Assembly (NCBI GenBank): GCA_963692865.2
Contig: OY843592.1
Span: 672,001 to 736,000 of the forward strand
DNA from: a bacterium
GTDB taxonomy: Bacteria; UBA8248
Length of the DNA: 64,000 nt
Direction: 5' to 3'
Shown here one piece after another: positions 2,495-19,631 of this stretch. The first letter of the stretch is position 1; each line of letters starts with the position of its first letter. The position numbers were made by a program, and so were the translations under genes. Below the pieces are notes generated by a model. That model did not search any database and was not told where the DNA came from. It saw nothing but the letters and a program-made list of their open reading frames with translations.

Positions 2495-2511
2495 ATCGCT
2501 TCCTCAAGTCA

Positions 2512-3411: not shown

Positions 3412-3543
3412 GTGAGCACCTCCTCTTGCCCGTAACTAGAAACAAACAATATATGCCGAGTCTAGCAGAAATGAAGCTCTTCAGAGAAAGAGCGTTGACA
3501 TTAGATGAATTTGCATTCTGATATGAACAGCTTTCTGAAAGAC

Positions 3544-4050
3544 CTATTTATTCCAGATACATTTTTTGTCTTTGGGAGAATACACCATCACACCCACAGG
3601 CTCGCTTACTGTTGAGTCTCTCGCCATGCGCAGGATATTCACAAATAAAATGGCATCTTTTGCTCCCGCGTTCTCTAGCATGTCTCTTCCCAGGCGGCAG
3701 ATTAACTCTGCTCTTTGCCTTCTCTTTTTTGCGCTCACCTCCGACCAAGGCAACAGGATATCAAGAGACAACCTGTCAGGACTCATCTCGGAAACGCGAA
3801 TTTCCGCACGGCTGGTGTGCTTTGAGGCATCCAGATATTTCTTGAGAATTTGGCCTACGTTTTTTGTGATGTCCCCCGGAGGCATTCCTCCCCATTTCTT
3901 TGCTTCTGCTACCAAAGATGCTTTTATGCCTGTTTTGGAAAGAAATAGTGGCTTCGAGAAAAACAATAGCGCGCCCGCTATAGATGCAAATGAGATGAAT
4001 AAAAACCAAAACAGAAAATTCACCCCTGAAGGTTTCCAGGTTCTCATCAA
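3544..4050 (-). CDS. hypothetical membrane-anchored protein
   Basis: 168-aa ORF with one N-terminal hydrophobic segment; start overlaps stop of upstream gene. Confidence 0.6.
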   Translation of the reverse strand: MMRTWKPSGVNFLFWFLFISFASIAGALLFFSKPLFLSKTGIKASLVAEAKKWGGMPPGDITKNVGQILKKYLDASKHTSRAEIRVSEMSPDRLSLDILLPWSEVSAKKRRQRAELICRLGRDMLENAGAKDAILFVNILRMARDSTVSEPVGVMVYSPKDKKCIWNK

Positions 4051-4730
4051 GAAACGGGATAGGCGGAGGCATAGCCGCCGACAGGGGCATCAGGATAAAC
4101 GGGAGACAAGCCCAGGGCTTCACGATGAAGCCTGATGGAGCGCAAGTGAATCAAATCGTCCCAAAGCACGTGACGCAAAGTTACCAGGGGAGTAATTCGA
4201 AATCCATGTGGGTGTTCAGTATCCAATGTAAATCCATCCGGGTGACACTTCATACAACGGTTCCACAAATCTATGGAACGCTCCTCGCTCACGCCCACAA
4301 TCGAGCTATCTGTAAAAACAAACAAGAGCCTTTTCTGTGTCGAGCCTTCGTGCTCAAACTTTTCAACTTCTGTAGCCGCTGCTTCGCATGCTTCGGAAAA
4401 ACGTAAATGCAGCCATTTGGGGTCCGCATACCGCTCAGAAGAAAAACGACGGTCATCCTCCCGCGTGTTGATGAACGTGCCGAACTGACTCATGTCCACG
4501 ACCGGCCAATGCAGGCGAGTGGCGCCGTAAAGAACCATGAACCATCTCGTCGTAATGTAAGCCATATGGCTGAGTTGCCTTCTTGGGGACCAACGCGCCC
4601 AATCTTCTGTCCCCGTTCTATCCAATTGCGCCTCGGATAAATCGGCGAGTTCGCCTATCGTCCATGCGGGGATTTGCCGGTAGACATAGGCGATTTCGCT
4701 TGGCGAAACCGGATAAGAAGATTCACTCAT
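4047..4730 (-). CDS. DinB/YfiT-like protein
   Basis: WSPRRQLSH and RHVLWDDLIH motifs; translationally coupled on both sides. Confidence 0.65.
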   Translation of the reverse strand: MSESSYPVSPSEIAYVYRQIPAWTIGELADLSEAQLDRTGTEDWARWSPRRQLSHMAYITTRWFMVLYGATRLHWPVVDMSQFGTFINTREDDRRFSSERYADPKWLHLRFSEACEAAATEVEKFEHEGSTQKRLLFVFTDSSIVGVSEERSIDLWNRCMKCHPDGFTLDTEHPHGFRITPLVTLRHVLWDDLIHLRSIRLHREALGLSPVYPDAPVGGYASAYPVS

Positions 4731-5437
4731 TCCCTAACGCCCCTTTTCAGGATTTCACAAATCGCCTCCTTGTCCTCCAGGGTAGCGAAAAGAAAATCCG
4801 GAGAAGCACTCGCCAACTCGTAAAGTGAATCCCCTTCTGTAGCCACTGCTACCGTCTTGGCACAACATGCGCGGCCCGCTTCAACGTCACGCCACGTATC
4901 GCCAATCACCCAACGGGAAATGGATTTATCGGGGAATTCCTTTTGAATAATCGCTTCGCCTCGCTGAAACCCCATTTCCAGCAACTTCGCCCTGTCGCCA
5001 GAATCGGAGCCAAACCCTCCGAACGAAAAAAACCGGTTCAACCCGCCGCGCGAGAGTTTGATTCGCGCACCATCTTCGATGTTGCCCGTGCCCAATCCCA
5101 TGAACACGTCTTTCCGACTCTCTAGACACGAAAGCAATTCTGGGATTCCCGGCATCAAATGAAAGTTTTTGGAATCCCTTACCGTGGTGGGTAGGATTTC
5201 CACATACTTCTCTAAAAGAACCTTTACCTCAGACTCGTTCCCGTAACGACCAAGATGAGAACTGAACATCTCTTGCACGATAAGTTCATCCGTTTTCCCA
5301 TGCGGGTGAACATGACGCATAGCGTTCGGTATCCCGTAAATTCGCTCAAAAGCGAGACTCAAGGCTCCTGCTCCGGCTCCCCCACTCAAAAGCAGCGTTC
5401 CATCCACATCGAACAGGATTAGGTGAATTGAGTTCAA
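4727..5437 (-). CDS. HAD-family hydrolase (phosphoglycolate phosphatase-like)
   Basis: LFDVDGTLL motif I, GTGN motif II, IGDTWRD motif IV. Confidence 0.9.
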   Translation of the reverse strand: MNSIHLILFDVDGTLLLSGGAGAGALSLAFERIYGIPNAMRHVHPHGKTDELIVQEMFSSHLGRYGNESEVKVLLEKYVEILPTTVRDSKNFHLMPGIPELLSCLESRKDVFMGLGTGNIEDGARIKLSRGGLNRFFSFGGFGSDSGDRAKLLEMGFQRGEAIIQKEFPDKSISRWVIGDTWRDVEAGRACCAKTVAVATEGDSLYELASASPDFLFATLEDKEAICEILKRGVRE

Positions 5438-5606
5438 TGGTTTCTTCCAATGTATATACTTGGAAATACTCTGAGCGAGAGACGATTCCCCTCTATGTTA
5501 TAACAGGGAGTCGAATTGATTCCAGAATCATTCCTGTTCGTGCTGGTGAAACACATGAATTCAGTGAAAATTATCCAGCAAAGCACACAGATAAAGGAGA
5601 TGAAAG

Positions 5607-6311
5607 TTGCCAGATGAGAAAATCGCCGTCGTAACGGGCGGGAACAAAGGTATCGGTTTCGGGATCTGCCGATCGCTTGCAAAACAAGGGATAAGAACCA
5701 TCCTCACGGCGCGAGACGTATCCAAAGGTGAAATCGCTAAAGAGCAGTTAAAACAAGAGGGGCTGGAAATCATATTCCATCCCCTGGATGTCACCGACGG
5801 GAATAGCATCGATTCTCTAGCCCGCTTTTTGGCCAAAGAATTTGGAAAACTAGACATTTTAATCAACAACGCGGCCATCAGAAAAGATGCCGGGATGATG
5901 GGGTTGGACGTTCCCATCGAGATCTTCCGAGAAATGATGGAAACCAACCTCTACGGGCCGCTCATGATGTGCCAGACATTGGCTCCTCTTCTGAAAAAAA
6001 GCGCAGCAGGCAGAATCGTGAACCTCTCAAGCGGCATGGGCTCTCTCGCCAGCATGGGAGGAGGCTCTCCCGCATACAGAATCACCAAAACCGCTCTGAA
6101 TGCGATGACGAAAGTGCTGGCGAGTGAATTCCGAGGATCTGGCGTATTAGTGAATTGTTGTCATCCAGGATGGGTGAGAACCGACATGGGCGGTCGGGGC
6201 GCCTCTAAATCAATAGACGAAGGAGCGGATACGCCTGTATGGCTCGCTTTGTTGCCAAAAAATGGGCCTACCGGAGGGTATTTCCAGGACAGAAAGCCCA
6301 TGCCTTGGTAG
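5607..6311 (+). CDS. short-chain dehydrogenase/reductase (carbonyl reductase-like)
   Basis: TGGNKGIG, NNAA, YRITK, HPGWVRTDMGG. Confidence 0.9.
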   Translation: MPDEKIAVVTGGNKGIGFGICRSLAKQGIRTILTARDVSKGEIAKEQLKQEGLEIIFHPLDVTDGNSIDSLARFLAKEFGKLDILINNAAIRKDAGMMGLDVPIEIFREMMETNLYGPLMMCQTLAPLLKKSAAGRIVNLSSGMGSLASMGGGSPAYRITKTALNAMTKVLASEFRGSGVLVNCCHPGWVRTDMGGRGASKSIDEGADTPVWLALLPKNGPTGGYFQDRKPMPW

Positions 6312-6424
6312 AAGGCGTGTTTATTTCATCACGTAGCTGGTGTTCGGTAGGCAGGTGTCTGGTGATTGCTTCGATGAAAAAATATTGAGAGGCGTTAATT
6401 ATCGATTTAGTCGGCTTTTATAAA

Positions 6425-7000
6425 TCAAGCCGATGTTTTTGCATAATCCCATCCCGTAACAAACAATTTCACCTCGCCGGTTGATTCCTCATATTTATAG
6501 CGAGTTAACTTGGCGAGATCATCACCATAGACATGAATACCCACCACAGGCTCAGTTGAAGCACAACTTACGCGATGCGCATCTTTATCTTTCGTACAGC
6601 AGACGAAAACATCTCCGGGCCCGGCCAGGCGTTTGCCTAGAGGCGTGAGTTTTACGCGGGCGCCGCTCTCGCGGGGACCTTCACGCAAAAAACTCTCTTC
6701 GTTTTCCGTTCCCCGGTAAATGCCTATCACTCCCCAGGTGCCGTGATCATGAATCGGGGTGGTCTGACCCACATCCCATATACCGGCGCCAACAGAAAAG
6801 CTCTCATCCGGCTCGACATGAATCCGGTTGAGCGTAAAACCTTCTTTTTTCACTAACAGCTGATCGGCATTCAAGAGGTTCGGCTCATCCAAAATTGGCT
6901 CAAGGGCCGTCACAACATGAGCCGTCACTTCTTCTTCGGTACCGCCAGTCTGTACAATTTCACGTACTTGGTCGATAAAATCCTTCATCTTTTTAGACAT
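6425..7000 (-). CDS. cysteine/3-mercaptopropionate dioxygenase-like cupin
   Basis: TPIHDHGTWG, DAHRV and IHVYG motifs of thiol dioxygenases. Confidence 0.8.
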   Translation of the reverse strand: MSKKMKDFIDQVREIVQTGGTEEEVTAHVVTALEPILDEPNLLNADQLLVKKEGFTLNRIHVEPDESFSVGAGIWDVGQTTPIHDHGTWGVIGIYRGTENEESFLREGPRESGARVKLTPLGKRLAGPGDVFVCCTKDKDAHRVSCASTEPVVGIHVYGDDLAKLTRYKYEESTGEVKLFVTGWDYAKTSA

Positions 7001-7048
7001 CTTTCATCCCCCAAGTTTTAGGATGCGTCCAAGCGAAATTCGTACGTC

Positions 7049-7600
7049 CTACATTTTATGATTCATCTCATGGACCAAGAGAGCCAACTTCAAAGATACG
7101 CTGCTTGCGAATCCACCGAGCTCGCCCGAGCCCGCGGTGACTCGATGTCATGGTATTATAAGCGGAACGGGATTTCTATGAAGCGCCTGGCCGACGGCGC
7201 GTGAAGCATTTGGGTTTCCAATCTGATTCGCCACCCAGCCGTAGGAGCGCGTCTCGCCATAAGGAATTTTTTCCGTCTCCTTGAGCACCTTGGTCATAAA
7301 TGGCGTGAGAGAGGAGATATCTGTCTTCAACTTGAAATTTTTTCGGGCGCCTTCAAGATATTCTTCTATCTCTTTTGAAGCTCGACGACTCAACGGTGTT
7401 GATTGCTCCTTTGCATGATTCGCCGCGAGAAGTTTTTCCACTCCATTCAACATTCTTATTTCTGCAATGCCCTTATCCGATACAAACACGGAGAATTCCG
7501 CACGCACTTTCTGAAGCCACTCGGCTACATGATTTTCCAGCGATTCTCCATCTTGCCGGAACAACTCACCCTGTTGCCATCCATCTACCCGGCGCGCCAT
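7049..7600 (-). CDS. ogt: methylated-DNA--protein-cysteine methyltransferase, selenocysteine-containing (in-frame TGA 7148-7150)
   Basis: IPYGETRSY, ASRAVGQA, NPVPLIIP then TGA-CAT-CGA-GTC = U-H-R-V (canonical PCHRV), continuing GELGGF...KLALL.HE to TAG at 7049. Confidence 0.88.
7108..7144 (-). promoter_or_regulatory. SECIS-like stem-loop 3' of ogt UGA
   Basis: mRNA CGAGUCACCG-CGGGCUC-GGGC-GAGCUCG-GUGGAUUCG; G-led apical loop ~21 nt after the UGA. Confidence 0.7.
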
Positions 7601-7623
7601 CTCAAATTCTCCTGTTCATGCCG

Positions 7624-8820
7624 CTAAAACGCCGTGGCCACTCCTCTTACATAGGCCTGTCCCGTTCTTAAGCGCAAGATCTGATTCGTTCCATCCGAAT
7701 GCAAGAACGTGCTGGCATCACGAAGATATTTCTCCATGGGCGCATCGTGCATAATGCCTGCGCCACCGAATACCTCCATGCCCAGGCGCGCGCAATCAAA
7801 GGCGACCTCCGAAGCGAAAACTTTGCACTTCCATCCTTGCGTGAAATCATAGGGCTTTTGATGATCCACCGCCCAGGCGGTGCGCCAGATGTACGTGCGC
7901 GCAATGTCCAGATTCATCGCCATATCGGCGAGAATAGTTTCTATCGCCTGGTGTTGCCCGATGGGCTTGCCGCCCTGGACGCGTTCGCGGCTGTAGGCGA
8001 GCGCTTTCTCGAAAGCGGCGCGTCCGACACCCAAGGCCGTGGCGGCTGCTTCGGGTTTTCCCATCGCCAGCAGATTGCCTCTGATTTCGAACATATTCCC
8101 TTCGCCCAGGATAATGTGGTTCTCGGGGATCTCGACGTCTTCATAGAAAATTTCTGAATTCATCGAAAGTCGCTGGCCAATTTTTTCATGCACTTCGCCT
8201 ATCGATACGCCGGGTGTCTCTCTAGGCACCAGAAAGCCGGTCAAGCCTTCTCTCAAGCTTTTGCTGAGGTCGGTTCTCGCCGCCAAAACGTACAACGACG
8301 CGACAGGGCCATTGCTGACATAGCGCTTTTCCCCATTGATGATCCATTTGCCGCCCTCTTTCTCCGCGCGCGTATAAAGCGCAATGGAGGGATCGTCGTA
8401 ATATCCCTGATGGTCGGTTCCCGCTCCCTCTTCCGTCATGGAAATCGCAGCCAGGAATCTGGGGTCTTCACACAGGCGTTTTATCCAGGGATCTCTGACT
8501 TCAGGCTCTACCTTTTCGAATATATGGGACAGCTTCCATGTCTGATCCAGGTTCACCGCAAAACCCAGATCTCCCACGGCAAGCTCCTCCCCCGCCAGAC
8601 AACAAGAAAGCACGTCGGCATCCATTCCGCCATATTCTTTGGGATAGGGAAGCTGCCTTAAACCCAAAGCGCTTGCTTTTTCGGTCAAATCCCACGGCAT
8701 CCGCTCTTCCCAGTTCTGAATCCGGTCACGCTCGGGAGCCACCGGAGCCAGTTCTTCACCAGCAAATTTTCTGGCTATTGTCTGAATTTGTATTTGTTCT
8801 TCATTCAATGTGAATTCCAT
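7624..8820 (-). CDS. acyl-CoA dehydrogenase
   Basis: SMTEEGAGTD, INGEKRYVSNG, ERVQGGKPI, FGGAG...EKYLRDA, GTNQI; start MEFTL with RBS GGAGGAG. Confidence 0.92.
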   Translation of the reverse strand: MEFTLNEEQIQIQTIARKFAGEELAPVAPERDRIQNWEERMPWDLTEKASALGLRQLPYPKEYGGMDADVLSCCLAGEELAVGDLGFAVNLDQTWKLSHIFEKVEPEVRDPWIKRLCEDPRFLAAISMTEEGAGTDHQGYYDDPSIALYTRAEKEGGKWIINGEKRYVSNGPVASLYVLAARTDLSKSLREGLTGFLVPRETPGVSIGEVHEKIGQRLSMNSEIFYEDVEIPENHIILGEGNMFEIRGNLLAMGKPEAAATALGVGRAAFEKALAYSRERVQGGKPIGQHQAIETILADMAMNLDIARTYIWRTAWAVDHQKPYDFTQGWKCKVFASEVAFDCARLGMEVFGGAGIMHDAPMEKYLRDASTFLHSDGTNQILRLRTGQAYVRGVATAF

Positions 8821-8895
8821 GCACACTCCTCCCGTCAATCATCCCCTGAAAGCGAGGCAAATGATACGATTCTCTTTAAGGAAAACAAAAGCGCA

Positions 8896-9279
8896 TCATG
8901 AAGAACAAGACAATGCGCGATTGGCCGCAGCCATCTCCATGACGCCGGGCGGTCTGCCGACGCCTGCGACAAAAGCGGCATCCGCTCCCGCCATTTCTAG
9001 CTGAAGAACAGATTCGTTCAAATCTGCATTTGGTGATAGCGATATGCCTCGCCTCGAAGGCATGTCTGTTTTTGCGACCTCTCCCACCTTTTGAAAAACC
9101 TCGGGCACACGAAGAAACTCATCCAGGTCTTTTTTGCTTACAACGCCAACCAAGCGATTTTCATCAAAAACAGCCGCCCAAGGCGAGTTTATCCTGTTCA
9201 TGGCCGTCCAAGCTTCTCTGGCGTCCTCCTCCACCCCAACAATCGCTACCGCCTGCAAAAAACACTCCCGAACCTTCAT
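8896..9279 (-). CDS. CBS-domain protein
   Basis: MKVRE..., VFDENRLVGVVSKKDL CBS pattern. Confidence 0.7.
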   Translation of the reverse strand: MKVRECFLQAVAIVGVEEDAREAWTAMNRINSPWAAVFDENRLVGVVSKKDLDEFLRVPEVFQKVGEVAKTDMPSRRGISLSPNADLNESVLQLEMAGADAAFVAGVGRPPGVMEMAAANRALSCSS

Positions 9280-9977
9280 CGAGCGATTTTCTCGGCCACC
9301 GACAGAAAACCAAAGCGCGGCATTGCTTCAATTTTCAAAAACGTTGATTTCATCGCTTTTAGTCTTTCCGGTGGATGTTGGGCGATTTCACTGGCCAGAT
9401 CACATGTTACCCTCATCAGGTCTATTTTCGATGTGAGGCGATTCACCAATCCTAAGCGATATCCCTCTCGCGCATCAAATCTTCTGCCGGTGAGCACCAA
9501 ATCCTTTGCTGATGGAATAAAAATCTGCCGCGTCAGACGAACGGTGGCGTCTCCTCCAGGAAATACGCCCATCGCAGTCTCCGGATATCCCAAAACGGCG
9601 CCCTCCACCGCAACACGAATATCGCATGAGAGCATCAACACCATCCCCCACCCGAAAGCGGGCCCGTTTACCGCTGCTATGGTCGGGATGGGCAGTTCAC
9701 GAAGGGCCGTACTCCACCTCTCGCCCAACATCATGAAGCGTTTCGCTTGTTCTTTCGTATGGGTAGCGCTTTCCTTAAGGTCGCGTCCTGAAGAAAAAGA
9801 CGTTCCTGAGCCGATTACAATAAGGACTTTAATATCTGGTGTCCTTTTAATTTCATCCATCTCCCTGCACATGGCTTCCATCAATGGCGTGTTGAATGCG
9901 TTTCGCGTTTCCGGACGATTCACGGTGATGATCGCAACATGGGATTCGATATGTGTGATGATCAGGCCTTTATCCAT
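9276..9977 (-). CDS. enoyl-CoA hydratase/isomerase family protein
   Basis: NRPETRNA, FSSGRDLKE, AAVNGPAFGWG, PETAMGVFPG; start moved to MDKGL because the longer ORF start crosses a terminator. Confidence 0.88.
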   Translation of the reverse strand: MDKGLIITHIESHVAIITVNRPETRNAFNTPLMEAMCREMDEIKRTPDIKVLIVIGSGTSFSSGRDLKESATHTKEQAKRFMMLGERWSTALRELPIPTIAAVNGPAFGWGMVLMLSCDIRVAVEGAVLGYPETAMGVFPGGDATVRLTRQIFIPSAKDLVLTGRRFDAREGYRLGLVNRLTSKIDLMRVTCDLASEIAQHPPERLKAMKSTFLKIEAMPRFGFLSVAEKIAR

Positions 9978-9991
9978 GTTTCGCCACAATG

Positions 9992-10023
9992 AAAAAAAAA
10001 GCCCGTCCCCTGAGGGACAGGCT
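9992..10023 (-). terminator. rho-independent terminator between the two crotonase paralogs
   Basis: Minus strand AGCCTGTCCC-TCAG-GGGACGGGCT followed by a run of T. Confidence 0.7.
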
Positions 10024-10050
10024 CGATGTATCATGGAAATTGGAAAGTCT

Positions 10051-10833
10051 TTATTCTCCGGTAAACACAGGTTTTCTCTTTTCTCTGAACGCCGCCAGCG
10101 CCTCGGCGAAATCCTTGGTGTGATTCAAAGGCAATCTGTGAGCGTTGGAAAACTCGACGGCCTGAGCGAGCGGCATATCGAGCGTTTGATCGATCACTTT
10201 TTTCGCGCTACGAACCCCCAAGGGGCCATTATCTCTTATCTTCTCCGCTATGGCGGTCGCTTCATCCATCAGCCTGTCCAGTGGATGCGCTTTGTTCACC
10301 AAACCAATACGCTCCGCTTCTTTTCCATCGATTCTCTTGCTCGTGTAAACCAATTCTTTCGCCTGTCCGGCCGGCATGATTCTTTGGAGCCAGACTACGC
10401 CACCTGCCCCGGGGAAGATTCCCAGGCTGCATTCCGGAAAACAAAGAGTAGCTTTTTCCGCGGCCAGTCTGATATCGCATACCAAGGTGATTTCCACGCC
10501 CCAGCCGAACGTATGACCGTTGATAGCGGCGATGGTGGGCATGGGCAAGCGTTCCCATAGCGACGTCGCCGTCATCACGTAGCGCTGGTATTGATCGGCC
10601 ATCTCCTTCGTATGCGTTGTGCTTTCTTTCAGGTCGCGGCCCGTGCTGAAACCACGTCCCTCGCCGGTGAGGATGACCACGCGCACGTTTTGTGCATCGG
10701 CCAAGGTTCGCGTCAATTCCACGAATTCTTCCGCCATCTTGAAGCTGATCGCGTTCAGGCTCTCCGGACGGTTGAACTTCACTACCGACAATCCATCTTC
10801 TTCCGTATAGGATAACGTTTCAAATTCGCGCAC
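10051..10833 (-). CDS. enoyl-CoA hydratase/isomerase family protein
   Basis: NRPESLNA, FSTGRDLKE, AAINGHTFGWGVE, PECSLGIFPG, AFREKRKPVFTG; paralog of adjacent gene. Confidence 0.92.
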   Translation of the reverse strand: MREFETLSYTEEDGLSVVKFNRPESLNAISFKMAEEFVELTRTLADAQNVRVVILTGEGRGFSTGRDLKESTTHTKEMADQYQRYVMTATSLWERLPMPTIAAINGHTFGWGVEITLVCDIRLAAEKATLCFPECSLGIFPGAGGVVWLQRIMPAGQAKELVYTSKRIDGKEAERIGLVNKAHPLDRLMDEATAIAEKIRDNGPLGVRSAKKVIDQTLDMPLAQAVEFSNAHRLPLNHTKDFAEALAAFREKRKPVFTGE

Positions 10834-10873
10834 GCGTCCCCTCCTGGAAAATATCTTTTCAACTCGATTCGGA

Positions 10874-11416
10874 TCAGCTTTTCAGATGGCTGGCCACTTC
10901 TTCGACAAACTTGAGTGTCGTGTCTCTCATTTCATCAGGCTGTAAATTGCTGACCGGGTGAGGCAACTGAATATAGGGATGGCCTTCCATACCCTTTCCG
11001 CGGAACTGAAAGTCCGCCGCATTCTTGAACGCCTCGGTGATAATGGTCGTCGAAGGAACGCCCCGTTTTTCAAATTCAACCGTGTCGTGCACACTGCACA
11101 ACGTGCAGGAGCCTCAGCCCCCCAATGCGGCTATCGCCACATCCACCTCCTGGGCCATTTCTTCAATCATTTCATCAGTGGCAGGCTTCGAGTAATGCTC
11201 TTTGCGCCGCGAGATGACTCTGGCCACGTCGAACTGCTCACGCAGGGCATTACCAAGAGTTTCCAAAATGATATCCGCTTGTTCTTTCGTGTTATCGAGG
11301 AGCCCCACCACCTTTCCCGAAAGATCGCCGGGCCGTTGCGCAAGCTCGATTCGCGCGGCCGATCCTCCCGCCGTCGGATCAATGAATCCCATTCCGTTCG
11401 CCATGGTTTTCTCCAT
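10874..11416 (-). CDS. UGSC-family selenoprotein (in-frame TGA 11114-11116)
   Basis: ORFs 11114..11416 and 10874..11101 share a frame; readthrough gives AIAALGG-U-GSCTLCSVHDTVEFEKRGVP. Confidence 0.88.
11084..11102 (-). promoter_or_regulatory. SECIS-like stem-loop 3' of UGSC UGA
   Basis: GUUGUGCA-GUG-UGCACGAC hairpin following an 11-nt spacer after UGA; G-led loop. Confidence 0.7.
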
Positions 11417-11599
11417 ATGATATGTGAATTCAACCGAGGCTAAATCATATCCCGCAATTCATTCCTTGTCTACGATATCAGCCTTTTCGTTCTTTTCATG
11501 AAAATGCGAATGATGTTTTTTCCGCTTCTCAGTTTCGCGGATTTTTGGCAAAATCAAGTCTAATTTACAGCAATCCTCTTAACCTTAAGGAGCAGACAA

Positions 11600-13861
11600 A
11601 TGGCCGATTACGATATCATCGGCAAGTCGAATGTTCGATACGACGCTATTCCGAAAGCGGATGGCTCCATGCCCTATGGAGAGGACGCGATACCCGCAGG
11701 CGCCTTACAGTGCGGCGTACTGTTTACGCCCATCCCCGTAGGCCGCCTGAAAAAACTCGACACTTCTAAAGCCGAAAAAATCCCGGGCGTAGCCGCCATT
11801 CTAACTGCAAAAGATATTCCGGGCACAAACGCGCGATTCGGCTCCGGAACACCGGGCCTGCCCCATCAACCGGTTCTGGTGGAAGATAAAATCGAATTTA
11901 CGGGAGACGCTCTCGCCATCGTAGGCGCCGAAAACAGAGAAGCGCTTGACGCCGCCATCGCGGCCATCGAGGTGGAAATCGAGGCGGAAGAAGGCGTGTG
12001 GACAACGCGTCACGATGAAACGAGCGCCGAGAAACGCCAGGCGTGTGATTTCGAGGCCACCCGCGGTGACATCAAAACCGCGTTCGATGAAGCCGACGTG
12101 GTGGTTGAGAAAACATACACCACGCAACTTGCCGAGCACGCCTTTCTGGAACCCGCTTCCGGTACCTCCTGGATGGAGGAAGACGGCGTTATCACAATCC
12201 GCGTCGGCACACAGCTTATTGAATACTATCGAGCCATTGCGGCGATTTTGGGAATCTCGCATAGCCGCGTCCGCCACCTCGGCACTTACGTCGGCGGCGG
12301 ATTCGGCGCCAAGGGTATGTTGACCGTAGAGCCTTACCTGGCGCTGCTTACATGGCATACACAAAGGCCAGCGGTAATGGTACTGGGTCGCGAGCACGGC
12401 ATCAGAAATACCTCGAAAAAACATCCTTTCTATATGAAATACAAAACAGGAGCGACCAAGGACGGGAAAATCCTTGCCGTAGAAGCGGATATCGTGGGCG
12501 ATGCAGGCGCCTATCCGTATAAGTCCAATCTATTCCTCCTGGGCGCGATGTGCATCGCCGCGGGTCCTTACGATGTCCCCAACGTAAAAATACGCGCGCA
12601 CGGCTATCTCACCAACAATCCCATCACCAACGCGATGCGCGGTGTCGGATCAAATCAAGTCTGCTTCGCATATGAGACCCAAATGAATCTGGTTGCAGAC
12701 GCCATCGGGATAGATAAATACGAATTCAGGCGCAAGAATTTCATCCAGAAAGGCCAGGAACTGCCGACCGGGCAGGTAATTCCTTACGAACCGAACCTGG
12801 AAGGATGCCTCGACGGCGCGCTTCAGGCATTGGGCGAACCTACAGAACCAGGGCCGGGCAAACGCATTGGCAGGGCGGCGGCGGCGAACATCACCGGCTA
12901 CGGAAGGCCGAATGACGACGCGAATGCGGCGGTTCACCTTGAGCCGGATGGCAGCGCCGTTGTCCGCGTAAGCGCGCCGGACATAGGCGCCGGCCAGGGC
13001 GCTACTCTCCAAAGCATCACGGCGGAAACCCTCGGACTCAGGCTAGATCAGGTTTCAACCCGTCTGTCCGATTCTGCTACTACGCCGCTCTCGGGCATCA
13101 CTGCAGGTTCTCGCCAAACACTCATGGCTGGGCACGCCGTTCAACTTGCCGCAGACGAAGTTCGAAAAGCCGTTACCAAAGGCGCCGCTTCGTTGCTCGA
13201 GGCTGCAGAAGAGGACATTCGCCTTGGAGGCGGCGAGGCATGGGTGGCCTCCGCTCCCGAGAGAATAGTTGGCATCGGTGCTGCGGCTGGCGAAGCCAAA
13301 AAAATGGGTGAATCGCTACATTGCACTCATGGCTACAACATGCCGGGACATGATTATGAGAATCCGGAGCGATACATGAACGGTATGGGCGGATGGTCGG
13401 ACTACACTTTTGGCGTTCATGCAAGTGAAGTGGAAGTCGACATCGAAACCGGCGAAGTGAATCTCTTGAAGCACATCGCTTCCCACGATGTCGGACGAGC
13501 GCTGAATCCTCAAAGCGTGGAGGGGCAATTCGAAGGCGGTGCGGTAATGGGAATTGGCTATGCGCTGCACGAGGAAATCACCATGGTGGAAGGAGACTGC
13601 CGATCACAAAGCTTTCACGAATACCTGATTCCCACCTCATCGGATATAGGCGAATTTGAGTCCGTCGTCCTCGAATGCGGGGAAGGGGCAGGCCCATATG
13701 GCGCACGCGGCGTCGGAGAACCTCCGTGCAATAACGCACCGGCCGCCGTCGCCCTCGCCATCAACGATGCGATAGGCACAGAAGTCTACGACCTCCCCAT
13801 CACGCCCGAGCGAGTCTGCTGGGCGGTAACAAAGAAAAACGGTAAAAGCAACGGTCATTAA
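11600..13861 (+). CDS. xanthine dehydrogenase/CO dehydrogenase-family molybdopterin-binding large subunit
   Basis: EHAFLEP, VGGGFGAKG, AMRGVG, DIGAGQG, AGSR, DVGRALNP..VEGQFEGG, GARGVGEPP. Confidence 0.92.
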   Translation: MADYDIIGKSNVRYDAIPKADGSMPYGEDAIPAGALQCGVLFTPIPVGRLKKLDTSKAEKIPGVAAILTAKDIPGTNARFGSGTPGLPHQPVLVEDKIEFTGDALAIVGAENREALDAAIAAIEVEIEAEEGVWTTRHDETSAEKRQACDFEATRGDIKTAFDEADVVVEKTYTTQLAEHAFLEPASGTSWMEEDGVITIRVGTQLIEYYRAIAAILGISHSRVRHLGTYVGGGFGAKGMLTVEPYLALLTWHTQRPAVMVLGREHGIRNTSKKHPFYMKYKTGATKDGKILAVEADIVGDAGAYPYKSNLFLLGAMCIAAGPYDVPNVKIRAHGYLTNNPITNAMRGVGSNQVCFAYETQMNLVADAIGIDKYEFRRKNFIQKGQELPTGQVIPYEPNLEGCLDGALQALGEPTEPGPGKRIGRAAAANITGYGRPNDDANAAVHLEPDGSAVVRVSAPDIGAGQGATLQSITAETLGLRLDQVSTRLSDSATTPLSGITAGSRQTLMAGHAVQLAADEVRKAVTKGAASLLEAAEEDIRLGGGEAWVASAPERIVGIGAAAGEAKKMGESLHCTHGYNMPGHDYENPERYMNGMGGWSDYTFGVHASEVEVDIETGEVNLLKHIASHDVGRALNPQSVEGQFEGGAVMGIGYALHEEITMVEGDCRSQSFHEYLIPTSSDIGEFESVVLECGEGAGPYGARGVGEPPCNNAPAAVALAINDAIGTEVYDLPITPERVCWAVTKKNGKSNGH

Positions 13862-13875
13862 CAGGCTTCGATCAC

Positions 13876-13909
13876 AAAAGAGCCCCGGCAATTTTGTCGG
13901 GGCTCTTTT
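13876..13909. terminator. bidirectional rho-independent terminator
   Basis: AAAAGAGCCCCGGCAA-T-TTGTCGGGGCTCTTTT-type inverted repeat between convergent genes. Confidence 0.85.
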
Positions 13910-14035
13910 CTAAAGAAATGCACAAAACATTGCTGTTAACTCAAAGAGTAGACCGAAAAGAGTCCTTTTCGAGATTTTGAGATGTGTTGCTGAAAATCCG
14001 GTCTTCTGATCATCATTTCTTGGAAAGAAAACTTA

Positions 14036-15055
14036 TCATAAGTCAAAATTTTTTGTCACCGCCCGACACGCCACCGTAATTCCGTGCATGACCATGCTGG
14101 AAGGCGAACCCCTGCTTCCTGCGACGATTAAATGAAGATCTTCGGGATCGCCAACCGCAGGCACAAAAAAATCATCATCTTTCACATCCACGGGAAACGG
14201 CCAACGATCCGCGCCTTTCTCGCCCCGCCAGATACCGCCGCGCTTGATATCCCCTATAGTGCGCCCACCCATTTCCAGTAATTTTTGATGGACATCACTA
14301 CGAGTCATTCCGGCGTCAGCGCAAAGATGCGCATGTTGCGCACCCAGGACAACCGCCATATCCGCTTGCCGATACATATTGGGTCCGCCCAGTGCGGACA
14401 TCATATCGGCAACCGTCGCAAGAAGCCGGTCGGGAGTCAGGCTCGCATCGTCCCACACCTGCACTGGCCCTTCGAGAGGAATCATGGTCACCACATTATC
14501 GCTCTTCGAAAACCCTTTCGATTCCGCATACGACTCCCAGGGCGATTCCTCCTCGTTCTCCCGGATGCAAAAGGTGTTTCGCCAGGGGCCGCCAAAACCG
14601 CCGAGACAGGTGATTCCGGGGATGCCTCCACCCACATTCATCATGATGAGCCGCACGGCGCGGCCGATGGTCAGATTCGCCCGAAAGCCGGGTCCCATGC
14701 AGCCCACGCCGCCGTGCAGACCGATCTCCCTGGCGTAGGGGCCATTCACCAACAGAAAAGGCGCGCCCGCACTCGTCGTGGCCTGAATCAGATTTACGTT
14801 GAAACGCTCATCAAGAAGCGCTTCCAGTCCAGCTATCAGCACAGGTATGTACTCGGGCCTACAACCCGCCATCACGGCATGGGCCGCCAGACTCTGGATG
14901 CTGAGTTCTCCCCCAGCCGGAGCTACTTGGCCAAGTACTTCACCCGGCTCCCTTTTGGTTCCCGAGAGCATCAAAGCGATTCTCTCTTCCGTCGGAGTCA
15001 CGACAGGCAGGCCGTCCGACCATTCTTTGTCAAAGAAAAACTCAAACTCATCCAT
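14036..15055 (-). CDS. uncharacterised 'WSDGLP' protein (UGSC-associated type), paralog 4
   Basis: WSDGLPVVTPTEER, AVMAGCRPEY, GCMGPGFRANLTIGRAVRL, ENEEESPW. Confidence 0.8.
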   Translation of the reverse strand: MDEFEFFFDKEWSDGLPVVTPTEERIALMLSGTKREPGEVLGQVAPAGGELSIQSLAAHAVMAGCRPEYIPVLIAGLEALLDERFNVNLIQATTSAGAPFLLVNGPYAREIGLHGGVGCMGPGFRANLTIGRAVRLIMMNVGGGIPGITCLGGFGGPWRNTFCIRENEEESPWESYAESKGFSKSDNVVTMIPLEGPVQVWDDASLTPDRLLATVADMMSALGGPNMYRQADMAVVLGAQHAHLCADAGMTRSDVHQKLLEMGGRTIGDIKRGGIWRGEKGADRWPFPVDVKDDDFFVPAVGDPEDLHLIVAGSRGSPSSMVMHGITVACRAVTKNFDL

Positions 15056-15090
15056 GTGCTCATCCTCAAAAGCAAGGCTGGCGGAAAGGC

Positions 15091-16107
15091 TTATGGTTGG
15101 TAGTCAGTCGAGACCGCTTCGCTGCCATCCACCCAGCCGGGCATGACGGCCGTCACCGGCCCGGGCGTACCGCCTGCGACGAGAAGTACCAGGTTATCTT
15201 CATCTTTAATCGCCGGCACCAGAAACGAATCATCCTGCAGGTTCACATCAAATGGCCACTTGGCTGCCATCTCATCACGCCAATAGCCCGATCTTTTCAA
15301 CTCGCCAAGGGGTCTGCGCGCAAGGCCCATAATTCTGTGATGAACATCTTTTTTGCTCAAACCAGCCTCCGCGCACATCCGCGCGTGGTCCGGCCCCAGG
15401 GCAACGACAATTTGGGTCTTCAGCCAGATGTTCAGCGAACCCAATGTGGATATTTTATCTGCTAATCCTACGAAAAAAGATTCCGGCTCCTTGGAATAAT
15501 CATCGATATATCCTTGGGGCGCTTCGGTCATCACGGCGGTTACAACATCGTCATCCAGATGAAATCCTCTCGTGACGGACAACGACTCCCATGGACTTTC
15601 CTCTTCGTTCTCGGCAATACAGAATGTATATCTGGCGGGAGAGCCGAAGGTGCTCATCGAGGCGAAAACCGGAACACCCCCACCCAGGTTCATGAGAATG
15701 AGCCGGATGGCGCGGCCAATCGTCGCATTCGCCCGAAAACCCGGCCCAAAGCACCCCGTGCCGCCGTGCAGACCGATTTTTTTCGCGTAAGGCCCATTCA
15801 CGATCATTAGAGGGGCCGCGCTGTGCATGGTTCCCTGAACGCCGTTCAAGTTGAGTTTCGGCGTGAGTAGCGCTCCAAGTCCTGCAATGACGACGGGCAA
15901 GTACGAAGGCTCGCACCCCGCCATCACGGCGTGAGCGGCAATCGCTTCAACTTTTGCTTCCCCCATGAGGGGCGGCACCAAACCGATGACTTCTGAAGCC
16001 CCAAGTCTTGTGCCTGAGAGCATGGAGGCCATTCGTTCTTGGGTTGGGGGAATAATCGGCAGGCCGTCCGACCAGGATTTTTGAAAGAAAAATTCGAATT
16101 CATCCAT
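15091..16107 (-). CDS. uncharacterised 'WSDGLP' protein, paralog 3
   Basis: WSDGLPIIPPT, AVMAGCEPSY, GCFGPGFRANATIGRAIRL. Confidence 0.8.
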   Translation of the reverse strand: MDEFEFFFQKSWSDGLPIIPPTQERMASMLSGTRLGASEVIGLVPPLMGEAKVEAIAAHAVMAGCEPSYLPVVIAGLGALLTPKLNLNGVQGTMHSAAPLMIVNGPYAKKIGLHGGTGCFGPGFRANATIGRAIRLILMNLGGGVPVFASMSTFGSPARYTFCIAENEEESPWESLSVTRGFHLDDDVVTAVMTEAPQGYIDDYSKEPESFFVGLADKISTLGSLNIWLKTQIVVALGPDHARMCAEAGLSKKDVHHRIMGLARRPLGELKRSGYWRDEMAAKWPFDVNLQDDSFLVPAIKDEDNLVLLVAGGTPGPVTAVMPGWVDGSEAVSTDYQP

Positions 16108-16148
16108 GGAAATATGACACCACTTTATCCATCGGGGCGACTCCGGCG

Positions 16149-17177
16149 CTACGCCTCATAGACCCCATGAACGGCGCGGCTGCCGCCGCTCCAGCCATGG
16201 CATACCGCGCTGCCCGATCCCCAGCCGCCCGCGACGATCAAGTGCAGGTCACGGGGGTCCTTGATGACGGGAACGAAAAACTCATCATCATCGGGGTCCA
16301 CGTGAATAAACATATCCAGCGCGCGTTCGCGCCGCCAGTTGCCGCCTCGTTTCAACTCCTTCACTTTGTGGCCTGCCAGCTCACAAAGCCGCCGATGCAC
16401 ATCCGCGCGCGCAAGACCGCCCTCGGAACAAATTTTCGCATGCTGGGGATTCATCGCGACGAGCATATCGGTTCTTGGCGCGTGCATGTTCCAGGAGCCC
16501 AAGCCCGTCATCGCATCGGCGATTCCCCGGAGCAGCCTCTCGGGCTCCTCGCTGACGTCATCGAAGGTCAGTCGCGGGCTTTCCACCATGGCCATGGTGA
16601 TAACGTTTTCATCCGCCCCGTATCCCCTGGATTCAGCGAGCGTCTCCCAGGGGTGAAACTGAAGGTTCTCCGTGACGCACGCGGTATAGCGCAGCGGCGT
16701 GCCGAAAATCGTCATGGAAGAAACGCCCGGGATGCCCCCGCCCAGGTTCATCAAAATCAGGCGAATGGCGCGGCCGATGGAAGCGTTGGCCCTGAACCCC
16801 GGGCCGAAACAGCCGTTGCCCCCGTGAATGCCGATTTTCTCGGAATACGGGCCGTTTACAATCATCAGGGGCGCTACGCCGTGCATCGTGCCCTGTACGC
16901 CGTTCATGTTGAACTCATCGCGAAGCATAAGCGTGGTGGCGCCGAGTACGACCGGCAGGTACTCGGGTTTGCAGCCCGCCATTACCGCATGAACCGCCAC
17001 GCTATGGACCGTGGCCTCGCCCATGGCGGGAGGAACCTGACCTATGAATTCGGCAGGATTTCTCTTCGTGCCCGAGAGCATGCGCTCGATGCGCTCTTCC
17101 GTCGGGGTGACGACGGGAAGGCCGTCCGACCAGGGTTTTTCCAGGAAAAACTCGAATTCATCTTGAGGAGCGTTCAA
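16149..17177 (-). CDS. uncharacterised 'WSDGLP' protein, paralog 2
   Basis: WSDGLPVVTPTEER, AVMAGCKPEY, GCFGPGFRANASIGRAIRL. Confidence 0.8.
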   Translation of the reverse strand: MNAPQDEFEFFLEKPWSDGLPVVTPTEERIERMLSGTKRNPAEFIGQVPPAMGEATVHSVAVHAVMAGCKPEYLPVVLGATTLMLRDEFNMNGVQGTMHGVAPLMIVNGPYSEKIGIHGGNGCFGPGFRANASIGRAIRLILMNLGGGIPGVSSMTIFGTPLRYTACVTENLQFHPWETLAESRGYGADENVITMAMVESPRLTFDDVSEEPERLLRGIADAMTGLGSWNMHAPRTDMLVAMNPQHAKICSEGGLARADVHRRLCELAGHKVKELKRGGNWRRERALDMFIHVDPDDDEFFVPVIKDPRDLHLIVAGGWGSGSAVCHGWSGGSRAVHGVYEA

Positions 17178-17206
17178 GCCCTTTCACCTTTTGAAGTATA
17201 TGGACA

Positions 17207-18241
17207 TCATGACGACGCAAATGCGCGGGAGACGGAACGGCTGCTCCCGTTCCAGCCGTGCATCACGGCCGTAATCGGGCCCGGAATCCCGCCCGCCACG
17301 ATCAAGATCAGCCTCCCGGCCTCTTTTATCGTCGGAACGAACGCGCCGTCATCGTCCAGATCGACGGGGAACGGAAAATCCCTGATGCGATTTTCCCTGA
17401 AATGCCCTCCCGTTTTGAGTTCGCCCACCGTGCGGCCCGCGATTTCGCAAAGGCGCCCGTGGACATCCGCCTTTGAATACCCCCTCTTTGCGCATATCGC
17501 GGCCTGCTGCGGGCTCATCGCCACCACCAGATCCGTGTTGGCCCAACAGTTCCACGAACCCAAATGCGACATGGTGTCCGCGATGGAGGGGAGCATGCGC
17601 TCGGGGTCGTCGCTCACGTCATCCCAGGACATGACGGGGCCTTCCACGTGCACGGCGGTGACGACGTTCTCCTCAACTTCAAAACCATGCGTCTGAGCGA
17701 GAGACTCCCAGGGGCTTTCCGCTTCATTCTCGGCGATGCAGTACGTGAACCTCCCCGGTTGGGAGAACGTGCTCATCGAGGTGATGCCCGGAATTCCGCC
17801 GCCAATGTTGAGCAGCAGAAGCCTGATGGCGCGGCCGATCGTCGCGTTGGCGCGATTCCCGGGGCCGAAACAGCCGAGCCCCCCATGCAGGCCGATTTCC
17901 CTGGCGTAGGGGCCGTTCACGATCAAAAGGGGGGCCGCGCAGGAGAGCGTCGCCTGAACGCCGCCCACGTTGAATTTTTCCTCCAGAATCGCCTCCACGG
18001 CCCCGACGAGAACCGGCATATACGCCGGCTTGCATCCGGCCATGACGGCGTGAACGGCGATGGTCCGAACGTCCGCTTGCGCCAGAAGCGGGGGCACGTC
18101 TCCGAGGACTTCATCCGGATCGCGGCTCGTTCCCGCCAGCATGAGTCCCAGGCGCTCTTCCGTCGGAGGGATGACAGGCAGGCCGTCGGACCAGGCTTGT
18201 TCAAAGAAATACTCGTACTCATCCACGGGAGGGGCGCTCAC
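17207..18241 (-). CDS. uncharacterised 'WSDGLP' protein, paralog 1
   Basis: WSDGLPVIPPTEER, AVMAGCKPAY, GCFGPGNRANATIGRAIRL. Confidence 0.8.
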   Translation of the reverse strand: MSAPPVDEYEYFFEQAWSDGLPVIPPTEERLGLMLAGTSRDPDEVLGDVPPLLAQADVRTIAVHAVMAGCKPAYMPVLVGAVEAILEEKFNVGGVQATLSCAAPLLIVNGPYAREIGLHGGLGCFGPGNRANATIGRAIRLLLLNIGGGIPGITSMSTFSQPGRFTYCIAENEAESPWESLAQTHGFEVEENVVTAVHVEGPVMSWDDVSDDPERMLPSIADTMSHLGSWNCWANTDLVVAMSPQQAAICAKRGYSKADVHGRLCEIAGRTVGELKTGGHFRENRIRDFPFPVDLDDDGAFVPTIKEAGRLILIVAGGIPGPITAVMHGWNGSSRSVSRAFASS

Positions 18242-18305
18242 GAAATGCCTCCGGAGAAATTTTCACGAAATGAAAAATGATTCGACGCCAAGTAAGATAC
18301 CCGGT

Positions 18306-18746
18306 CTATTTTTCGCTTTCGTCGATCAGCTTTTTCAGGTCCTCCGCCAACGGCGAGCGCAGAGCAACCAGCTTTTGGTAATCCCGCATGGCGGCGACCC
18401 GGTTCCCCCGCAGCAGATGGGCGACGCCCCGGTATTCGACGGCTTCGGCGTGTACCGGATTCACGGCCAAGGCCCTGTTGTACGCCGAAATGGCCTCATC
18501 GAGGCGGCCGAGGTGACGAAGGCTGTAGCCCATCAGGGTATGCGCCCTGAAGTCTTCGGGGTCCTCGGCGACCGCGAGGCGGAAATGCAAAAACGCCCTT
18601 TCCATGTCTCCGTTGTGAATGTGGACGCGGCCCAGTTCATACGCAGTGCCCGGATCCGCGGGCAACGGCTGTTTCGCCGGGTCGTACGCGACGGCGGAAA
18701 AAGCGGAGCCGAGAAGCAGGGCGAGAATGAGTGCGGTGATTTTCAC
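18306..18746 (-). CDS. secreted tetratricopeptide-repeat protein
   Basis: GTG start after GGAGG, signal peptide KITALILALLLGSAFSAVA, TPR helices (AHTLMGYSLRHLGRLDEAISAYNRAL). Confidence 0.8.
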   Translation of the reverse strand: MKITALILALLLGSAFSAVAYDPAKQPLPADPGTAYELGRVHIHNGDMERAFLHFRLAVAEDPEDFRAHTLMGYSLRHLGRLDEAISAYNRALAVNPVHAEAVEYRGVAHLLRGNRVAAMRDYQKLVALRSPLAEDLKKLIDESEK

Positions 18747-18937
18747 GTCTACGTTCCTCCCGAAACCAGAGTGGATTGGAAGCCATGACCTGGCGAAACC
18801 TTCGCCGGATGGTATACGCTTGCCGTCGAACATGTCGAGCAAATATACACGGGCGCCGGACGGATTGCGAGTCCATGCCGTTAGAATACGCCCGAGGTTA
18901 CATGTCGCAACCACCGCCAATCTACAGGAGCCGTTCC

Positions 18938-19324
18938 ATGCCGATTTACAGAAACCTCGCCGCCCGGAGCCAGGGAAAGGCGGCCGACTACGTCACCGCA
19001 AACGCCGCCTGGGTGGACGGCGCCCACGCCACCATCGGTTATTTCCGCATGGAGGCGGGAGGCCATTCCAGCCCGCACTATCACCACGACGAGCAGTTCT
19101 TGTATCTCCTCAAGGGCGGGCTTCGCATCGCCGTGGAAGGAGAGATTCTCGAAGCCGCGCCCGGGGATCTGGTGCAGTTCGCGCCCGGGGAGGTGCACGA
19201 GATCATGGCGCTCGACGAGCCCGTGGAGCTTCTGCTCACGAGGTCTCCGGCGAGGCCGAGCCTCGAGGCGCTCGCGGTGACGCCCGAAGGCGAGCGGGCC
19301 AGGAGCCTTTTGCGCCCCGAATAG
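18938..19324 (+). CDS. cupin-domain protein
   Basis: PHYHHDEQ...GDLVQFAPGEVH; RBS AGGAG before ATG 18938. Confidence 0.85.
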   Translation: MPIYRNLAARSQGKAADYVTANAAWVDGAHATIGYFRMEAGGHSSPHYHHDEQFLYLLKGGLRIAVEGEILEAAPGDLVQFAPGEVHEIMALDEPVELLLTRSPARPSLEALAVTPEGERARSLLRPE

Positions 19325-19564
19325 CCCCGAACGGGCATAACCCGTTAAAAAACAATCGGATAAATTTTCAGGAATTTATCGAAAAACGTCGTGAATTTAT
19401 ACAATTTTATCCAATTTTTCAGGAATTCCCTTGGGGCCCCGAAGAGGCCCGTTCCGGGCGGGCCGCGCGGGTCGATTCCGCCCGAAGAGGCGGGTCGATT
19501 CCGGCCGGCGCGGGAGGAATTGACGAGCGGACGGCCTCCTCACCCCGCGCGGCAGCCTCCCCAT

Positions 19565-19631
19565 CCGCCTCACCCTGAGTAGCCGCCGAAGGTCAAACGC
19601 GACTGAGAAAGAAGCGTTTGTATCGAAGGGC
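19565..19631 (+). repeat. palindromic repeat family A (CACCCTGAGTAGCCGCCGAAGG...GTATCGAAGGGC), uninterrupted copy
   Basis: Related copies at 20567, 26095, 29227, 33668/33875 and 40123. Confidence 0.75.

Follow-up and report, generated by a model that had tools for sequence, protein, structure and literature searches.

The window, i.e. the whole stretch of DNA that was analysed, comprises 64,000 nucleotides (nt) of a bacterial genome (UBA8248; GenBank assembly GCA_963692865.2, contig OY843592.1, positions 672,001 to 736,000). The subject of this work is a gene on its reverse strand that encodes a selenoprotein of the UGSC family, in which selenocysteine (Sec) is specified by an in-frame UGA codon. 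Four paralogous genes for a protein of about 340 residues, hereafter the partner, are found on the same strand beyond a molybdenum hydroxylase gene, and genes for two enoyl-CoA hydratases, a CBS-domain protein and an acyl-CoA dehydrogenase lie downstream (Table 1).

The UGSC gene and its decoding signals

The frame from 11416 to 10877 consists of 180 codons, of which one, at 11116..11114, is TGA. Translation table 11 divides it into two open reading frames (ORFs), 11416..11114 with 100 amino acids (aa) and 11101..10874 with 75 aa, whereas read-through yields the peptide ...VAIAALGG-U-GSCTLCSVHDTVEFEKRGVPSTTI..., with ALGG-U-GSCTLC as the Sec region. The Pfam model of the UGSC family, PF24696, matches residues 12–179 and thus spans the TGA (E 7.5e-51, 173.1 bits at a cut-off of 25), covering model positions 3–171 of 172. 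As this match crosses the TGA, the two table 11 ORFs are the halves of one gene and not a chance junction. Similarly, the NCBIfam model NF041046, “UGSC family (seleno)protein”, is matched over positions 2–146 of 147 with 149.8 bits, compared to a cut-off of 125. A second ATG is located at position 11404, and as a GGAG precedes it by 8 nt, this codon rather than that at 11416 may be the true start.

In an alignment of 70 UGSC sequences the Sec column is occupied by Cys or Sec throughout. C101 and G102 are invariant in this alignment, and S103 and C104 are found in at least 90% of the sequences. The window protein keeps a complete UxxCxxC motif in the form U-G-S-C-T-L-C. An initial interpretation, made from the letters alone and referred to here as the sequence-only reading, had described a read-through UGSC selenoprotein with an ALGG-U junction, and the PF24696 match across the TGA, the Sec machinery (see below) and the translation all agree with that description. 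The gene thus truly encodes selenocysteine and is an ordinary UGSC member, with nothing to distinguish it from the rest of the family.

The same reading had noticed a hairpin behind an 11-nt spacer after the UGA. It was located at 11102..11084, as a structure of the selenocysteine insertion sequence (SECIS) type: UGA, 11 nt, GUUGUGCA-GUG-UGCACGAC, i.e. 8 bp with a 3-nt loop. We take the spacing to be that of the minimal fdhF element of Escherichia coli. The folding energy of the 76-nt hairpin stretch is ordinary (z = -0.39), with 66 of 200 shuffles folding equally well. The hairpin was found in all eight UGSC paralogues of the genome, and its six core pairs are all formed in 30 of 31 distinct Sec-form sequences, with every pair being standard in 30–31 of the 31 rows. 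Two-sided changes are seen at three pairs in this set: C:G is replaced by G:C in five sequences, G:C by A:U in a single sequence (both changes being synonymous), and another such change affects the outermost pair. The observed pairing or covariation score was reached by none of 500 shuffles. Still, it should be noted that a 3′ arm slid by +3 scores similarly, and that Cys forms, which need no SECIS, retain a mean of 5.1 of the six core pairs. The pairing in the Cys forms (loci L063-L142) is attributed to the self-complementarity of the sequence coding for S-W-x-x-H-D, a stretch in which the SECIS may have originated or of which it may have left a remnant.

The apical loop sets the two forms apart. 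Its GU is invariant in the 31 distinct Sec-form sequences and absent from the Cys forms. Codon +7 after Sec is NGT in each of the Sec forms (TGT in 24, AGT in 7). Among the Cys-form loci, which were collected by a one-genome-per-species scan with the pattern DCGSCT[SP]W (80 loci, Cys forms only), the codon was counted in 51 of the 80; AGC or TGC is used in 35 of these, and AGT or TGT in none. In the long frames of the genome, AGT amounts to 19% of AGY and TGT to 21% of TGY. As NGT is invariant in the Sec forms against this codon bias, the loop GU is kept at the RNA level.

The genome (4.15 Mb in eight contigs, 61% G+C) encodes selB, selA and selD with scores above cut-off (391.7, 567.2 and 334.6 bits, respectively), and ARAGORN identified two tRNA-SeC genes. 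One of the latter is found on contig C1 and the other on a small contig; given a contamination estimate of 6.7% for the genome, the second copy may be foreign. The selD gene, at 65,915–66,877 of contig C1, is itself a selenoprotein gene with one in-frame TGA. All eight UGSC genes of the genome contain exactly one in-frame TGA apiece. Across the phylum the family occurs in 43 of 51 species genomes, and one in-frame TGA is present in every one of the 150 matches listed.

The partner protein and the surrounding locus

The UGSC protein does not stand alone: it is accompanied by a near-obligate partner, to which it is often covalently fused. In the window, four tandem partner paralogues at 14036..18241, 51–53% identical to copy 1, face a single UGSC gene. 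A partner-family protein of about 340 aa is encoded within the 9 kb scanned on either side of each of the eight UGSC genes of the genome. It is the next gene in six of these loci, and the eighth paralogue is fused to it in-frame, with a second copy following. The same association is seen for the Cys forms. In 79 of the 80 loci the partner is either a neighbouring gene of the same orientation or, in 16 of them, part of a single open frame with UGSC, and in the sole miss the locus ends 336 nt after UGSC. The hosts, which take in Alpha- and Betaproteobacteria, include haloarchaea, Methanobacterium, Actinomycetota, Sphingomonadales, Xanthobacter, Paraburkholderia, Binatia and Dehalococcoidia, among others. 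The ratio of 79 to 80 should not be taken as a probability, because the loci are structured by kinship; the spread is still wide and covers two domains of life.

Fusions were likewise observed in database sequences. PF24696 is present on 29 of 37 long partner homologues (595 aa or more), and in two relatives, P0068 and P0042 (68–71% identical over the matched part), the C-terminus of the partner runs directly into UGSC; by eye, this C-terminus is closest to that of copy 3. A profile of seven UGSC sequences gave 4,682 matches at E ≤ 0.001 among 1.84 billion representatives, and the best 150 of these are all strong and full-length, with 15 long enough for fusions. The notion of a “miniature” selenoprotein, in the sense of a self-sufficient enzyme, does not hold up against a partner that is paired or fused with UGSC in all eight loci of the genome and in 79 of 80 elsewhere.

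The partner family is large, with 4,941 of 8,000 scored candidates at E ≤ 0.001. The sources label its members “hypothetical”, save for one UniRef entry named “Thioredoxin”, and a protein atlas returned only unnamed clusters plus one in which 16% of the members carry UGSC. Pfam searches of 57 partner sequences and NCBIfam searches of the four window copies revealed no recurrent family, and PF09338 matched none of the 57 at E ≤ 1. A relation of the partner to GrdB or to UGSC was considered and ruled out by hhalign, which gave 0.1–0.6% (GrdB 0.6%, PrdB-like proteins 0.4%). The partner contains a nearly invariant cysteine, Cys65, in addition to the invariant residues D14, N127, R132, E166 and H241 (numbering of copy 1). 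The genome has 15 partner genes versus eight for UGSC, and three of the 15 have no UGSC gene anywhere near (contig C1, positions 1,855,280, 3,141,646 and 3,314,717).

Table 1. Features of the UGSC locus, in window coordinates
Feature	Position	Strand	Remarks
UGSC-family selenoprotein gene	10877..11416	-	180 codons; stop TGA 10876..10874; translation, PF24696 and NF041046
UGA codon read as Sec, residue 101	11114..11116	-	opens the U-G-S-C-T-L-C motif; Cys/Sec column in the alignment
SECIS-type hairpin	11084..11102	-	8 bp and GUG loop; starts 11 nt after the UGA
Partner copy 1	14036..15055	-	339 aa; no Pfam/NCBIfam match; model with predicted local distance difference test (pLDDT) score of 92.9
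Partner copy 2	15091..16107	-	338 aa
Partner copy 3	16149..17177	-	342 aa
Partner copy 4	17207..18241	-	344 aa
Molybdenum hydroxylase large subunit (xanthine dehydrogenase family)	11600..13861	+	MoCoBD_1, MoCoBD_2, Ald_Xan_dh_C
Enoyl-CoA hydratase	10833..10051	-	downstream of UGSC
Enoyl-CoA hydratase	10034..9276	-	downstream of UGSC
CBS-domain protein	9279..8896	-	downstream of UGSC
Acyl-CoA dehydrogenase	8838..7624	-	downstream of UGSC
Ogt (O6-methylguanine-DNA methyltransferase)	7049..7600	-	TGA at 7148..7150

The stop codon of UGSC is separated from the downstream gene by a gap of 40 nt, and UGSC probably forms an operon with the genes at 7624..10833. The order of the locus (partner copies 4-3-2-1, molybdenum hydroxylase, UGSC, hydratases, CBS-domain protein, acyl-CoA dehydrogenase, Ogt) is kept in three congeners, in which the UGSC protein is 91–97% identical. 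The molybdenum hydroxylase gene diverges from UGSC and converges on the partner array. Owing to this gene order UGSC is transcribed apart from the partners, which is unusual for the family. A promoter-like site upstream of UGSC (11472..11444) and a terminator-like site after the partner array (13972..13953) were noted, although the counts of such sites are not above those in shuffled sequence. Over 88 loci (the 80 Cys-form loci plus the eight of the genome), the recurrent neighbour clusters comprise CoA-transferase III (9 loci), two clusters of acyl-CoA dehydrogenases (9 and 4), short-chain dehydrogenases/reductases (9), acyl-CoA ligase (6) and enoyl-CoA hydratase (4).

At the far end of the locus, table 11 cuts Ogt at residue 150; read-through (...IIP-U-HRV...) adds 32 residues and places Sec in the position of the active-site cysteine. 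An Ogt selenoprotein family is listed in passages of three papers (PMC13188914, PMC1976440, PMC9312934).

Predicted fold and relation to selenoprotein B

Based on an AlphaFold2 model with a pLDDT of 95.3, in which β-α units alternate five times, the UGSC protein is predicted to be a flavodoxin/Rossmann-like (β-α)5 domain of about 180 residues. Sec101 is placed between a strand (93–99) and a helix (102–117), i.e. at the N-terminus of helix 3. The matches listed for the model in two structure searches (Foldseek, VIA) are flavodoxin-like, Rossmann-like, TIR and receiver domains, and no thioredoxin-fold chain is among them. Sequence searches of the PDB returned nothing below E 0.3, be it with the UGSC protein or with the profiles of UGSC and of the partner. 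Likewise, no GrdB or PrdB chain was found in the PDB by sequence search with the GrdB-like and PrdB-like proteins of the genome.

The sequence-only reading had likened the active-site motif to that of selenoprotein B of the glycine and proline reductases (GrdB, PrdB). In agreement with this, the UGSC protein matches TIGR01917 (glycine reductase selenoprotein B) with E 0.0011, residues 80–173 falling on model positions 325–415, and gives weak matches to GrdH (E 0.0079) and TIGR01918 (E 0.085). The scores are far below the cut-offs of the GrdB-type models, with 18 bits versus 602.2 for TIGR01917 and 11.8 bits versus 65.45 for TIGR01918. When 14 UGSC members were scanned singly against 18,950 NCBIfam models, TIGR01917 was matched by seven of them (best E 1.5e-4), GrdF by four, TIGR01918 and PrdB by three each and GrdH by two. 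Families outside the GrdB type were each matched by one of the 14 members, and none was recurrent.

A stronger signal was obtained from the comparison of profiles. The 70-sequence UGSC alignment was used as the query for hhalign, and the templates were alignments of 27 GrdB-type and 17 short PrdB-like sequences, all of them encoded by read-through genes of the phylum. The GrdB set gave 94.7% (E 5.6e-8, 97 columns), the PrdB-like set 83.2% (E 8.8e-6, 84 columns) and both sets together, i.e. 44 sequences, 95.9% (E 5.6e-9, 96 columns). Sec is placed on Sec in the alignments that were inspected, namely those to the combined set and to the PrdB-like sequences. Masking of the columns of Sec and of the Cys at +3 left 80.8% against GrdB (E 1.3e-5, 96 columns) and 90.8% against both sets (E 1.2e-6, 88 columns). 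Conversely, the controls were flat. Reversed templates gave 0.1–0.2% (E 0.27–0.42), the unrelated partner family gave 0.1% (E 0.45), and column-shuffled versions of the combined set gave at most 0.4% (E 0.15 or higher; 19 of 20 runs gave a row).

Similarity to GrdB/PrdB is thus found by hhalign at the profile level, and the lack of profile similarity that would have refuted the sequence-only reading was not seen. The Sec module of UGSC, formed by the last ~95 residues, and that of GrdB, GrdF and GrdH (glycine/sarcosine/betaine reductase) and PrdB (D-proline reductase) probably descend from a remote common ancestor. This relation does not extend to membership: judged by sequence, UGSC does not belong to the GrdB/PrdB family (TIGR01917, TIGR01918, TIGR04483, PF07355), because its scores are below the cut-offs, the N-terminal region is absent and no pyruvoyl proprotein is encoded nearby. 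The resemblance put forward earlier therefore stands for the Sec region, with 94.7–95.9% in hhalign and matches in seven of 14 members, and falls for the family assignment. Four papers name both UGSC and GrdB; no link between the two is made in their passages around UGSC, nor in those around GrdB in two of them (PMC13188914, PMC2398784).

Selenoproteins of the GrdB and PrdB type are also encoded elsewhere in the genome. A Grd-type cluster at 3,117,963–3,122,920 of contig C1 comprises a GrdB-like selenoprotein, whose motif U-G-T-G-T lacks the +3 Cys, together with a GrdA that contains Sec and a proprotein of the GrdE type. The only PF09338 match of the genome (3,121,299–3,122,453 of the contig) adjoins the GrdB-like gene. 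Furthermore, three short PrdB-like selenoproteins of 266–301 aa with the motif U-P/G-L-C-x-R-S are encoded on contig C1 (1,076,041–1,076,943, 554,862–555,752 and 846,219–847,016). They score below the selenoprotein B cut-off and match the model in its C-terminal half only, and several such proteins are found in most genomes of the phylum.

Proposed function and comparison with known systems

The interpretation that we favour, with some reserve, is that UGSC acts as the redox-active subunit of a two-part selenol/thiol reductase, together with the ~340-residue partner and recycled by a thioredoxin-type system. The partner would bind the substrate, and the selenolate of Sec101 would attack or reduce it. 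Cys104 would then resolve the adduct to form a selenenylsulfide, which a thioredoxin-type system would re-reduce, restoring the selenol. The reaction may be a reductive cleavage of C–N, C–S or X–O bonds, as supposed in the sequence-only reading. A thioredoxin supply is weakly suggested by Redoxin/thioredoxin-like domains on one of the 37 long partner homologues and Pyr_redox_2 on two, one of which is named thioredoxin reductase by its source; Pyr_redox_2 is also a neighbour in four of the 88 loci. The substrate may be an organic acid or acyl-CoA, to judge from the recurrent neighbour clusters and, in the window, from the two hydratases and the acyl-CoA dehydrogenase that follow UGSC.

A number of observations weigh against this interpretation and the relationship that underlies it. 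The identity between UGSC and GrdB/PrdB is 15% over the aligned columns, and the alignment is limited to UGSC residues ~81–180, on GrdB from about position 337 to the end. A profile of the 14 UGSC sequences found none of the four GrdB/PrdB-like genes of its own genome at E ≤ 10, the Pfam model GRDB (PF07355) matched none of the 14 members at E ≤ 1, and the PrdB-like set scored 20.8% when hhalign was run with the 14-sequence UGSC alignment. At least 90% of the family (70-sequence alignment) have Trp where UxxCxxC has its +6 Cys. Thioredoxin-type fusions amount to 3 of 37. No GrdA gene was found near the UGSC locus, and neither was a pyruvoyl gene of the GrdE/PrdA type, the only PF09338 match of the genome being 2.4 Mb away. 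As such a subunit is missing from the vicinity, the pyruvoyl chemistry of Grd and Prd would not be available to UGSC. Finally, no third gene is universal over the 88 loci, and the Methanobacterium loci have housekeeping genes as neighbours. For these last two reasons an organic acid or acyl-CoA as substrate is no more than hinted at.

The main rival to the two-part reductase is a role as a mere electron carrier. UGSC would then be a thioredoxin-like shuttle between selenenylsulfide and dithiol that reduces the partner, e.g. at Cys65, and makes no contact with the substrate, and what it has in common with GrdB would be the redox module and not the nucleophilic mechanism. The U/C-x-x-C motif at the N-terminus of a helix is the classic arrangement of a redox carrier, the partner offers a nearly invariant cysteine, and reviews class UGSC with thiol oxidoreductase-like proteins where they name the family (PMC2398784, PMC13188914). 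Moreover, one UGSC gene serves four partner genes in the window, and the ratio over the genome is 15:8, with three partners remote; this pattern fits a shared carrier. Other features speak for a catalytic role. The selenoprotein B proteins are the sole recurrent sequence relatives of UGSC, and the Sec of selenoprotein B is held to act on the substrate. One-chain fusions, as seen in 16 of 80 loci and among 29 of 37 long partner homologues, are commoner with catalytic domains than with carriers that diffuse, and the thioredoxin-type domains on some partners suggest that thioredoxin already fills the carrier role. On this evidence we consider the carrier function unlikely, albeit to be taken seriously.

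A less probable alternative concerns the relationship itself. The likeness to GrdB/PrdB could have arisen by convergence, or reflect a generic Rossmann-like β-α-β unit with a CxxC-type motif, and it would then be uninformative on function. The 15% identity is low enough for this, searches at the level of HMMER fail in one direction and with the Pfam GRDB model, and the fold is among the commonest. Against this, the hhalign signal persists with the Sec and Cys columns masked and vanishes with reversed, shuffled or unrelated profiles. The likeness also runs over ~95 columns that include the E-x-E-x-x-G-x-P strand and the H-P motif, and the GrdB group alone recurs among the 18,950 models. Convergence is therefore regarded as improbable.

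UGSC and the partner array might also serve the molybdenum hydroxylase, for instance as its electron partner or by supplying its cofactor with selenium or sulfur. The large-subunit gene sits between the two, this arrangement is kept in the three congeners, and its best NCBIfam models, all below cut-off, include selenium-dependent xanthine dehydrogenase in addition to 4-hydroxybenzoyl-CoA reductase alpha. In addition, no small (2Fe–2S) or medium (FAD) subunit was found among the ORFs of at least 110 aa scanned in 1823..22430. However, the other seven UGSC loci of the genome share no such neighbour within 9 kb on either side, and none is present among the 22 annotated of the 25 most recurrent neighbour clusters of the 88 loci. 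The link is thus local to this locus, and the hydroxylase is a conserved local context outside the universal module, which makes service to this enzyme very unlikely. A true stop at the TGA, with the halves as separate products or the gene broken, can be set aside: most database relatives do end at ~100 aa according to gene callers, but PF24696 crosses the TGA, all 150 matches listed from 43 genomes of the phylum have one in-frame TGA, Cys forms carry Cys at this column, the second half lacks a credible start of its own (merely a TTG within helix 3), and SECIS and Sec machinery are in place.

The literature on the family is brief in the passages that mention it. UGSC is first mentioned in 2007, as a selenoprotein without an assigned function (PMC1976440, Zhang and Gladyshev). 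An ocean survey of 2008 counted 255 Sec and 21 Cys forms and ranked it with the most abundant selenoproteins (PMC2398784, Zhang and Gladyshev). The latter paper mentions one fusion of UGSC to a domain called “Unknown_1”, which may be the partner described here. A review of 2022 (PMC9312934) and one of May 2026 (PMC13188914) list the family without a function in the passages naming it, in line with what the sequence-only reading had said. The predicted flavodoxin/Rossmann-like fold, the profile-level link to GrdB/PrdB and a near-obligate partner instead of an occasional fusion go beyond these passages.

The value of the window gene in itself is modest, and the interest lies at the level of the family. 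Its role can now be approached experimentally, with a defined partner, a homology-based hypothesis for Sec with Cys104 as the resolving residue, and Cys-form hosts in culture (Sphingobium wenxiniae, Paraburkholderia caffeinilytica, Natrinema zhouii and Methanobacterium ferruginis). A bolder view, which we offer only tentatively, is that UGSC and the partner constitute an undescribed and very widespread Sec/Cys reductase, descended from the Sec domain of selenoprotein B but equipped with a different and structurally unprecedented substrate subunit. It would have radiated in the genus to eight UGSC and 15 partner genes. The locus in the window, with four partner paralogues, one UGSC gene, a lone molybdenum hydroxylase subunit, two enoyl-CoA hydratases and an acyl-CoA dehydrogenase, could then encode a novel reaction, dependent on selenium, in the degradation of an organic acid or acyl-CoA.

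In comparison with known systems, the window protein is the same as the published UGSC family with regard to the U-G-S-C motif, its length and a full-length match above both curated cut-offs. With the thiol/selenol oxidoreductases of the Trx (thioredoxin), Grx (glutaredoxin) and Prx (peroxiredoxin) type it shares the U/C-x-x-C motif at the N-terminus of a helix. A “likely Trx-like” fold was proposed for UGSC in a passage of the ocean survey (PMC2398784); the model consists of five alternating β-α units. In contrast to GrdB and PrdB, UGSC has no counterpart of the part that precedes the Sec domain (model positions ~1–320 in GrdB and ~216–320 in the PrdB-like proteins), and with 180 residues it is shorter than the PrdB-like and GrdB-like proteins encoded by the same genome, which measure about 300 to 440. 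Like GrdB, for which the motif is given as UxxCxxC in a passage of PMC13188914, the UGSC protein of the window has this motif in full. Common to UGSC and GrdB/PrdB are a strand, the sequence U-G-(S/T)-C-T-x-C, a helix, the element E-x-E-x-x-G-(I/V)-P with the next strand, and an H-P loop.

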